Below are positions 6,901-7,697 of a stretch of DNA of 13,955 nucleotides, in pieces. The stretch lies in the NCBI RefSeq assembly GCF_003334765.1, contig NZ_QOWT01000055.1; one strand, given 5' to 3'. The notes under the pieces were generated by a model. The model had not been told where the DNA came from. It did no database searches and saw nothing but the letters and a program-made list of their open reading frames with translations. Position numbers and translations under genes: made by a program. The DNA is from Escherichia coli (GTDB taxonomy: Bacteria > Pseudomonadota > Gammaproteobacteria > Enterobacterales > Enterobacteriaceae). Each line of letters begins with the position of its first letter. Positions within the stretch are counted from its first letter, which is position 1.

Positions 6901-6912
6901 GACAATGCAGTG

Positions 6913-7026
6913 ATGCAGGGTATAGTGCCATTAACCACAGAAACAGCACTGTTGTCCTGTATTAAGCAGGCAAGAGAAGATGTCCTTACCCTGCGCCATC
7001 TGCAGCTTCTGCACCAGAACCGGTGA
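6913..7026 (+). CDS. Possible small ORF (37 aa; MQGIVPLTTETALLSCIKQAREDVLTLRHLQLLHQNR)
   Basis: Open frame between yeeW and the terminator at 7056. No convincing Shine-Dalgarno. Low confidence. Confidence 0.2.
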   Translation: MQGIVPLTTETALLSCIKQAREDVLTLRHLQLLHQNR

Positions 7027-7055
7027 ATCTCACTCAACAGGCTTCATTTCCCCTG

Positions 7056-7090
7056 ACGCCAGCCTGAATACAGCTGGCGTTTTCATTTAT
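7056..7090 (+). terminator. Rho-independent terminator ending the island operon
   Basis: Perfect 8-bp stem ACGCCAGC (7056-7063) / GCTGGCGT (7073-7080) with a 9-nt loop, followed by TTTCATTTAT. Confidence 0.6.
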
Positions 7091-7184
7091 AAACAGAAAG
7101 GAAAACCGATAATAATGGAATGGACGCCCCGACCATGAAGCAACGGTAGGATATTACTGATAAACCTTCCAGTGGAGGTGCGTT

Positions 7185-7265
7185 ATGGCCGTTTTAACGA
7201 TTAGCATTGACCTGACAAAAAATGAATTCCAAATCCACGGTCTGGGTAGGAACAGAAAAATCTAA
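7185..7265 (+). pseudogene. Remnant resembling the N-terminus of an IS110-family transposase (26 codons then stop)
   Basis: MAVLTISIDLTKNEFQIHGLGRNRKI* resembles the IDL(A/T)K..F.(V/I)HG N-terminal signature of IS110-family transposases; preceded by GGAGG. Confidence 0.35.
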
Positions 7266-7340
7266 GCTCAGAAAACGGATTAAAGTAAGCGTCAACGGAG
7301 CACCGTATTGACGCTTATTTATTGGTGAGAACTACGTTCC

Positions 7341-7697
7341 ATGGCAGGAGTTCGTCAACACGGTTGGAGGGCCATTCCGGCAGTATGCTCAGAATATGGC
7401 GCAGATACGCTTCCGGATCGATACCGTTCAGACGGCAGGTGCCTGCTTTTCCGGCAACAAGCAGGAATCTCAGCGCTGAAGCAGGAATTAGAGGTAAAAA
7501 CGCCCTACCGGGCCATGAATCACCCGGTCATTGGAGTAGTAACCAAAGCAGATTTAGCCAGCATGGAACAAATATCTTTGGTGAAAAGTTGGTTACGGGA
7601 AGCTGGAGCGCACAACGTGTTAGTAACCAGTGCAGTTAATAACAATGGAGTTACAGAACTTTTTGCCTTGCTGCATACAGAAGAAGGCTGTTGTTAA
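7341..7697 (+). pseudogene. yoeF: YoeF-like ORF; C-terminal part resembles the EutP/PduV GTPase family, N-terminal part does not
   Basis: …NHPVIGVVTKADLASMEQISLVKSWLREAGAHNVLVTSAVNNNGVTELFALL resembles an EutP/PduV C-terminus, but no P-loop is found upstream in this frame; a second ORF (7322-7639) overlaps in another frame, consistent with decay. Confidence 0.45.

Follow-up and report, generated by a model that had tools for sequence, protein, structure and literature searches.

The question raised by positions 6901–7697 of the window (by which we mean the whole stretch of DNA analysed, 13,955 nucleotides in length) is whether its short open reading frames and its hairpin belong to a functional unit, include genuine small genes or are what remains of larger ones, and where within it a genomic island gives way to the chromosome. 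The window covers the right end of a CP4-44-type genomic island and the adjoining chromosome of Escherichia coli, with cbeA, cbtA and yeeW upstream and tmaR (yeeX), yeeA, sbmC and dacD downstream. Positions 6300–8300 are 99.6% identical to K-12 MG1655, where the coordinate equals the window position plus 2,071,234, and 99.9% identical to strain 203740. The K-12 counterparts are the pseudogene yoeD (b4642; window 7315–7443, minus strand) and yoeF (b4538; window 7341–7697). Comparison of strains makes it very probable that the region is a multi-layer scar, formed where a CP4-44-type island meets the remains of the chromosomal pdu operon for propanediol utilisation, and not a functional unit. The pieces that are discussed below are the following:

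6706–6900, plus strand: yeeW, 64 codons left from the 5' part of a DUF5983 island gene that in intact relatives runs to about 163 codons.
6910–7026, plus strand: small ORF starting at GTG 6910 (38 codons) or ATG 6913 (37 codons), apparently an internally deleted DUF957 gene.
7055–7088, plus strand: terminator-like hairpin (hairpin proper 7055–7081) with a U-rich tail, corresponding to the ancestral hairpin between DUF957 and DUF4942.
7114–7284, plus strand: left end of an IS110-family element, 171 bp, made up of a 71-bp left end and the first 100 nt of the transposase gene.
7185–7265, plus strand: 26-codon IS110-like stub ORF, with a GGAGG Shine-Dalgarno sequence eight bases upstream.
7285–7443, minus strand: terminal 159 bp of an IS66-family (ISEc23-like) element, the K-12 pseudogene yoeD, comprising the 30-bp end with its inverted repeat (7285–7314), the tnpC stop codon (7315–7317) and the last 42 tnpC codons (7318–7443).
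7341–7697, plus strand: 118-codon ORF, yoeF in K-12, a chimera whose codons 1–34, 35–58 and 59–118 have three origins.
7444–7514, plus strand: DUF4942 fragment (gene nt 121–192), forming codons 35–58 of yoeF, in frame with the part downstream.
7515–7519, no strand assigned: ATGAA microhomology at the in-frame DUF4942::pduV joint, defined by a three-way comparison.
7515–7697, plus strand: pduV relic, codons 88–147 and the stop codon of a chromosomal EutP/PduV GTPase gene.

Positions 6901–7697 were used as a megablast query against 5,426 complete E. coli genomes. The query falls into blocks of differing distribution, namely query positions 1–384 (island and start of the IS110-family element), 385–543 (IS66 family) and 615–797 (EutP/PduV). 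The arrangement of the window recurs in 3,170 of these genomes, a state with the whole IS110-family element in 655, and pduU together with the 5' part of pduV is kept in 644. The comparators retained were PM06121, in which this site is free of the island and the pdu operon is complete; HS, with the island, a full-length decayed IS110-family gene and a 121-aa ORF annotated as EutP/PduV; TST3, UID2309220033 and MEI2A-0323, whose intact island right ends lie elsewhere in the chromosome and read cbtA, DUF5983 (163 aa), DUF957 (58–65 aa), DUF4942 (280 aa); and, for the IS66 part, plasmids bearing intact or partial ISEc23-like elements. In pairwise and multiple alignments the window is collinear with HS on both sides of the region of difference (window 6302–7284 with HS 5390–6384, and window 7444–8300 with HS 7696–8552). 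Two other genomes were dropped: MLI104K2, considered as an empty-site control, has poly-G assembly noise as its upstream sequence, and DA33135, considered as an intermediate on account of a match ending 25 bp into the IS66 end, turned out to be the window state with an extra ISEc12 insertion. The names DUF957, DUF5983 and DUF4942 used throughout rest on RefSeq annotation and pairwise homology; neither NCBIfam nor Pfam gave a match for the 38-aa ORF or for the intact DUF957 (58–65 aa), DUF5983 and DUF4942 proteins.

From 7515 through tmaR the window is 98.6% identical to PM06121, in which the order is tmaR, pduV to pduA, pduF, pocR, a cobalamin riboswitch and cobUST, and in which an intact gene for a 147-aa PduV abuts tmaR. 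Homology to intact pduV starts exactly at 7515, codons 59–118 of yoeF being PduV residues 88–147, and by synteny this segment holds the place of the last gene of the pdu operon beside tmaR. The profile matches agree with such a tail: only yoeF residues 57–112 match PF10662 (PduV-EutP; E 7.6e-13, model positions 86–142 of 143), and the ORF scores 42.3 bits against TIGR02528, whose cutoff is 138.35, compared with 186.7 for the intact PduV of PM06121. The P-loop of the intact protein (GPSQCGKT, residues 8–15) has no counterpart, antisense IS66 sequence standing at that place in the window ORF. The EutP-like fragment, which the initial annotation had assigned to the debris of the island, is thus best explained, from synteny and sequence comparison, as the 3' end of the chromosome's own pduV in its ancestral place. 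In another island-free lineage pduV is kept from codon 49 directly after cobU, through an independent deletion; the different end points within pduV imply that the pdu operon has been lost at least twice in E. coli. No specific account of E. coli pduV remnants turned up in a search of the literature. The 60-codon tail (ATG 7515) is called an intact protein by PGAP, under WP_001016348.1.

The remainder of the 118-codon ORF has other sources. Codons 1–34 read the IS66 tnpC remnant in antisense, and the following codons come from a DUF4942 gene, of which the window keeps 71 bp out of about 843: positions 7446–7519 align with nt 121–197 of intact DUF4942 genes with a local alignment score of 76, compared with 17.3 ± 2.3 for shuffled sequences. 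This 23-codon fragment did not show up when yoeF was compared by BLASTP with an intact DUF4942 protein; it was recognised by DNA alignment and through the longer ORF of HS. Indeed, the 121-aa ORF of HS begins with DUF4942 residues 1 to about 64 (58% identity over 67 aa, E 5e-18), the corresponding DNA (HS 7584–7774) is 72–78% identical to DUF4942 genes, and the DUF4942::PduV fusion is in frame there. A reading of 7444–7514 as the right end of the IS110-family element was rejected, the start of the HS ORF being the start of DUF4942. At the joint the sequences read GGGCCATGAAACAGG in DUF4942, CGTCAATGAATCGCC in pduV and GGGCCATGAATCACC in the window, so that the true boundary between island and chromosome would be the 5-bp ATGAA at 7515–7519, inside the 118-codon ORF and not after it. 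The K-12 annotation draws CP4-44 to record position 2078748, which is window 7514. The ORF itself is present as described at first, at 7341–7697 and with an EutP/PduV-like C-terminal half that lacks a P-loop; its N-terminal half is not a degenerate GTPase, being composed of antisense IS66 transposase sequence and the DUF4942 fragment. On these alignments yoeF is most simply described as an accidental chimera.

Both the 159-bp IS66 end (7285–7443) and the 71-bp DUF4942 fragment (7444–7514) had gone unnoticed in the initial annotation. The IS66 piece matches PF13817 (IS66 C-terminal element) with an E-value of 6.7e-16 over model positions 4–39 of 39, and its DNA shares 99.4% identity with an IS66 copy on a plasmid and 96.9% with ISEc23; the last 42 codons of TnpC, GTCRLNGIDPEAYLRHILSILPEWPSNRVDELLPWNVVLTNK followed by the stop, are one residue off those of ISEc23. 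In three unrelated flanks GTAAGCG is where the homology begins, and the far end of intact ISEc23 carries an inverted copy of this terminus (20 of 24 positions matching), which together identify 7285 as the exact terminus of the element. The other IS66 end is deleted in the window, and with it any 8-bp target duplication. No strain with an intact IS66 element inside the IS110-family element was found.

Upstream of 7285 the stub is collinear with HS, where the IS110-family element is whole (locus L004, 6214–7583, 1,370 bp). The stitched translation of the HS copy matches NF033542 (IS110 family RNA-guided transposase), the model of a family with DEDD-type enzymes, end to end with 238 bits, for a cutoff of 140, and it is through this collinear element that the transposase-like character proposed for the 26-codon stub could be confirmed; the 26-aa stub by itself has no match in NCBIfam or Pfam. 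No complete element with an intact transposase gene is found in either genome: the window keeps 171 of 1,370 bp, and in HS the gene is broken by frameshifts and stops, among which is the stop after codon 26 of the stub. The stub is thus cut off at 7284 where the IS66 element inserted, and its early stop goes back to an older frameshift that HS has in common with the window. Set against uninterrupted islands, which read CCGATAATGTCAG with the DUF4942 start as its ATG, the insertion point is CCGATAAT^GTCAG. In both HS and the window foreign DNA starts after CCGATAAT, and in HS the island resumes with ATGTCAG 1,370 bp further on, which places AT at both junctions of the element. The ends were defined by this comparison with uninterrupted islands, without independent copies, all E. 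coli copies of the element sitting at this one locus. Apparent second copies were rejected as splits caused by other IS insertions. A tblastn search of plasmids gave, as nearest intact relatives, proteins of at most 54% identity, and the element is a fossil of an otherwise unsampled one. The 270-bp right end, where the guide (bridge/seek) RNA of an IS110 element would lie, is deleted in the window; Rfam, which may hold no guide-RNA family, gave no match (gathering threshold and E≤1) in the window or in the whole HS element.

On the island side, the two reading frames that precede the hairpin can likewise be traced to longer genes. The product of yeeW is 69% identical over 55 aa (BLASTP, E 4e-25) to the N-terminus of an intact 163-aa DUF5983 protein (locus L011); only the first 60 or so codons of the gene are retained, and the DNA homology fades past about 6890. 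The 37-codon ORF that had been noted after yeeW is present, at 6910/6913–7026, and it had been thought that it could be a genuine small protein. Over 30 aa its C-terminus shares 80% identity (E 6e-16) with that of an intact 65-aa protein annotated as DUF957. It retains the first codons of a DUF957 gene (PLTTETAL vs. KSLTTETAL) and the last 27 or so, LSCIKQAREDV..LHQNR; the homology is clear and about 30 internal codons are absent, the gap lying, in the multiple alignment, between the repeats CAGCGCTG and CAGCACTG (CAGCRCTG). This truncated arrangement recurs in 3,886 genomes, and PGAP annotates 6934–7026 as a DUF957 pseudogene. Judged by this alignment, the ORF is an internally deleted DUF957 gene and no candidate for a new small gene.

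The hairpin at 7055–7081 stands apart from these fragments. Its RNA folds with −16.1 kcal/mol (z = −4.06; none of 200 shuffled sequences folds as well) and is followed by UUCAUUU, the tail being UUUUCAUUU, as in an intrinsic terminator with hairpin and U tract. A strict terminator pattern scan did not list it, the stem being bulged and its perfect-stem version having a 9-nt loop. The rho-independent terminator proposed before was therefore correct as to a stable hairpin with a U tract, whereas the epithet "textbook" was generous. The hairpin is kept between DUF957 and DUF4942 in all three diverged intact island copies, where the DUF4942 ribosome-binding site and ATG come after it, and a C-to-U change among the copies keeps the pairing as G-U. 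This conservation in intact islands indicates an inherited feature of the island family and not a by-product of decay. In K-12 Term-seq data from three growth conditions (PMC7815308) no 3' end on the plus strand is listed at the hairpin (20783xx), which could be explained by low expression of the operon. As a predicted terminator it probably still ends the transcripts of cbeA-cbtA-yeeW, and it is possibly the only functional item in 6901–7697.

Taken together, the comparisons suggest a history for the locus. The strain comparison gives cobUST, pocR, pduF, pduA to pduV and tmaR as the ancestral chromosome, and cbtA, DUF5983, DUF957, the hairpin and DUF4942 as the ancestral right end of the island. 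Deletions would have cut the DUF5983 gene down to yeeW and taken about 30 codons out of the interior of DUF957 (event a). An IS110-family element would have entered at CCGATAAT^GTCAG, parting the ATG of DUF4942 from its ribosome-binding site, and the transposase gene of the element would then have decayed through a frameshift near codon 21 and several stops (event b). Illegitimate recombination at the 5-bp ATGAA may have joined DUF4942, at about codon 65, in frame to codon 88 of pduV, removing the right end of the island together with pdu genes (event c). In the lineage of the window only, an ISEc23-like IS66 element would have inserted 100 nt into the IS110 gene, for which a target duplication of 8 bp (GGATTAAA or neighbouring bases) would be expected, and a single deletion would then have run from 159 bp inside the IS66 element to about nt 120 of DUF4942 (event d). 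Events a to c are common to HS, and event d is later. The order is only partly resolved, a to c being common to every island-bearing strain examined.

Other readings of the locus have to be weighed against this scar. One could regard the whole of 6901–7697, EutP-like fragment included, as island debris with the boundary after 7697; the pieces are indeed contiguous with the island, and K-12 names yoeF a prophage-region gene and draws CP4-44 up to 2078748. However, island-free strains have the full pdu operon, pduV lies here beside tmaR with the identity given above from 7515 onwards, and the other island-free lineage keeps pduV from codon 49 after cobU. For the PduV tail this reading is refuted by synteny, and we regard it as scarcely credible as a whole. 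Debris from insertions and deletions is an apt description of the region, as had been proposed, except for the PduV tail and the hairpin. The similarities expected from such debris, to IS110 transposases and to EutP/PduV, were both found, each piece lying far above chance by homology, and every ORF has a longer intact homologue elsewhere, in place of the intact homologues of the same size that would have spoken for genuine short genes. The latter observation also weighs against the idea that a real small protein, perhaps from a newborn chimeric gene, is made from at least one of the short ORFs (the internally deleted DUF957 gene, the 60-codon PduV tail or yoeF). In its favour, more than 3,000 genomes have the ORFs without interruption, PGAP lists the 60-aa WP_001016348.1, the DUF4942::PduV fusion of HS is in frame, and EcoCyc counts yeeW and yoeF as uncharacterized genes, not as pseudogenes (PMC11551758). 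Nevertheless, all of these ORFs are truncated or chimeric parts of longer members of their families, and the PduV tail is devoid of the P-loop and of the N-terminal 60% of the GTPase fold. No Shine-Dalgarno sequence precedes the starts at 6913, 7341 and 7515, and a K-12 ribosome-profiling supplement has no translation start or entry in this interval. Between the pduV relic and intact pduV genes the ratios of non-synonymous to synonymous changes are 3:2, 5:1 and 2:0; non-synonymous changes that equal or exceed synonymous ones fit relaxed selection, the numbers being small. Thousands of genomes have all three ORFs open, but these are more than 99% identical here, so that the survival of the ORFs carries little weight. 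A real small protein is on this evidence very unlikely, and probably no ORF in 6901–7697 makes a functional one.

A further possibility is that the junction has taken on a role as RNA, serving as a 3' untranslated or Rho zone of tmaR or as the source of an antisense RNA, in which case its disruption would have a phenotype. In K-12 the primary 3' end of tmaR lies at window 7755 on the minus strand, adjoining a perfect hairpin at 7756–7784, and a strong region of Rho termination on the same strand peaks at window 7599, in the pduV relic (Rho score 14.2, p 4.5e-50; PMC7815308 and its supplements). Moreover, in one gentamicin TraDIS library (PMC10879529) yoeD and yoeF rank with the loci whose insertions are most depleted. 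On the other hand, Rho termination is a general occurrence in untranslated DNA beyond a gene and requires no particular history of the sequence, the hairpin of tmaR is located outside the scar and does not differ in strains with an intact pdu operon, no Rfam family matches, and the TraDIS signal comes from a single library with very small targets and is left undiscussed by its authors. Co-option as RNA is therefore improbable, although somewhat less so than the two readings above. The minus-strand termination in the relic is as one would expect in untranslated DNA beyond a gene, and the minus strand of the relic would serve only as a zone in which Rho stops read-through from tmaR. The gentamicin depletion of yoeD and yoeF is an observation that a reading of the region as pure junk does not predict. 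That the scar is not inert, and that minus-strand RNA over yoeD/yoeF or a chimeric YoeF peptide affects physiology and so explains the depletion, appears very doubtful to us. The multi-layer scar thus remains by far the preferred reading.

The picture is one of ordinary genome decay, in outline already annotated in K-12 as yoeD and yoeF, and it would not surprise a specialist; its main value lies in the clean-up of annotation. Both the K-12 gene yoeF and the 60-codon "intact" EutP/PduV of PGAP would be accidents of three fused fragments, yeeW and yoeF are argued here to be remnants (yeeW of a truncated DUF5983 gene), the boundary of a CP4-44-type island is shifted to a specific 5-bp microhomology, and the pdu operon of E. 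coli would have been lost on at least two occasions, with different end points in pduV.

Compared with known systems, the locus is the same as that of yoeD and yoeF at the end of the cryptic prophage CP4-44 of K-12, whereas the upstream part of the island is unlike K-12, with dynamin-like and antirestriction genes here in place of flu and yeeR. The internally deleted DUF957 ORF, the IS110 stub and the DUF4942 fragment are without annotation in the K-12 record, which gives yoeF as a protein, whereas its dissection here yields a chimera. Gene order and intergenic hairpin are shared with the right ends of islands of the CbtA/CbeA type (CP4-6/CP4-57-like); in contrast to intact ends of this type, the window has a DUF5983 gene of 64 codons, a DUF957 gene with an internal deletion and 71 bp of DUF4942 fused to pduV. 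In the HS copy of the IS110-family element no terminal inverted repeats are obvious; its left end is very short and its right end measures 270 bp. Relative to ISEc23, the fragment of the window lacks tnpA, tnpB and more than 90% of tnpC, only the last 42 tnpC codons being left of the tnpA-tnpB-tnpC set. Finally, yoeF residues 59–118 are identical to the PduV of PM06121 at 57 of 60 positions, in the same place and orientation beside tmaR, whereas PduV residues 1–87, including the P-loop, are absent from the window ORF.

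Between the pduV relic (window 7515-7697, plus strand) and tmaR (yeeX) lies a perfect inverted repeat, listed here with the other features on which the following comparisons rest.

Window 1-6300: GTPase, dynamin-family and antirestriction genes, upstream part of the island
Window 7756-7784: perfect 14+14 inverted repeat, CAATGAGGGTTGCC.GGCAACCCTCATTG, between the pduV relic and tmaR
Strain 19SZHZ803Rt locus, 4531-5400: cobU, a 120-aa hypothetical ORF, pduV from codon 49 and tmaR, island-free
Strain HS locus, 6214-7583: complete but decayed IS110-family element, 1,370 bp

In K-12 Term-seq data the primary 3' end of tmaR corresponds to window position 7755 (PMC7815308 supplement 1), that is, directly past the inverted repeat when the minus strand is read. 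The same study reports a strong Rho-dependent termination region in K-12 at window ~7599 on the minus strand, antisense to yoeF (score 14.2, p 4.5e-50; PMC7815308 supplement 2), and read-through from tmaR thus stops within the pduV relic.

PGAP treats the 60-codon PduV tail encoded by this relic as intact and names it 'EutP/PduV family microcompartment system protein' (WP_001016348.1), and the identical name is carried by the 121-aa DUF4942::PduV fusion of HS-type strains; both names claim too much. Upstream of the 121-aa ORF, the public assembly of strain MLI104K2 contains long poly-G/poly-C noise (locus positions ~4880-5000), within which 'hypothetical proteins' have been annotated; this sequence looks like an assembly artefact. 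The island-free arrangement of strain 19SZHZ803Rt is a separate deletion of the pdu operon, with another end point in pduV than that of the window, and partial matches of this type occur in ~170 of 5,426 complete E. coli genomes.

The IS110-family element of strain HS has, by its insertion, separated the DUF4942 start codon (ATG) from the ribosome-binding site; it begins ~30 bp past the hairpin of the DUF957-DUF4942 intergenic region and has a left end of 71 bp and a right end of 270 bp. The guide RNA of such an element is expected in the long right end; an Rfam search of the whole element gave no candidate for it.

In one TraDIS library of MG1655 with pACYC-aac(3)-IV exposed to gentamicin at 50 mg/L, the 30 most depleted loci include yoeD, yoeF and yeeS (log2FC -6.46, -4.11 and -3.27, respectively; PMC10879529 Table 2), a depletion passed over in the text by the authors (PMC10879529). 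The yoeD and yoeF loci correspond to window 7315-7697.

Decay of the island is not confined to the debris at 6901-7697, as the deletion at 3852/3853 is a further scar in the same island. Relative to strain EC9, 2,854 bp are missing there, and with them two hypothetical genes and one for a patatin-like phospholipase. The 467-codon ORF (window 3064-4467) arose when this deletion fused an rdcB-like gene with one of the DUF932 family. Where the window carries its GTPase, dynamin-family and antirestriction genes, CP4-44 of K-12 has flu and yeeR; given this different upstream gene content, the island of the window is of CP4-44 type, yet distinct from the K-12 version.
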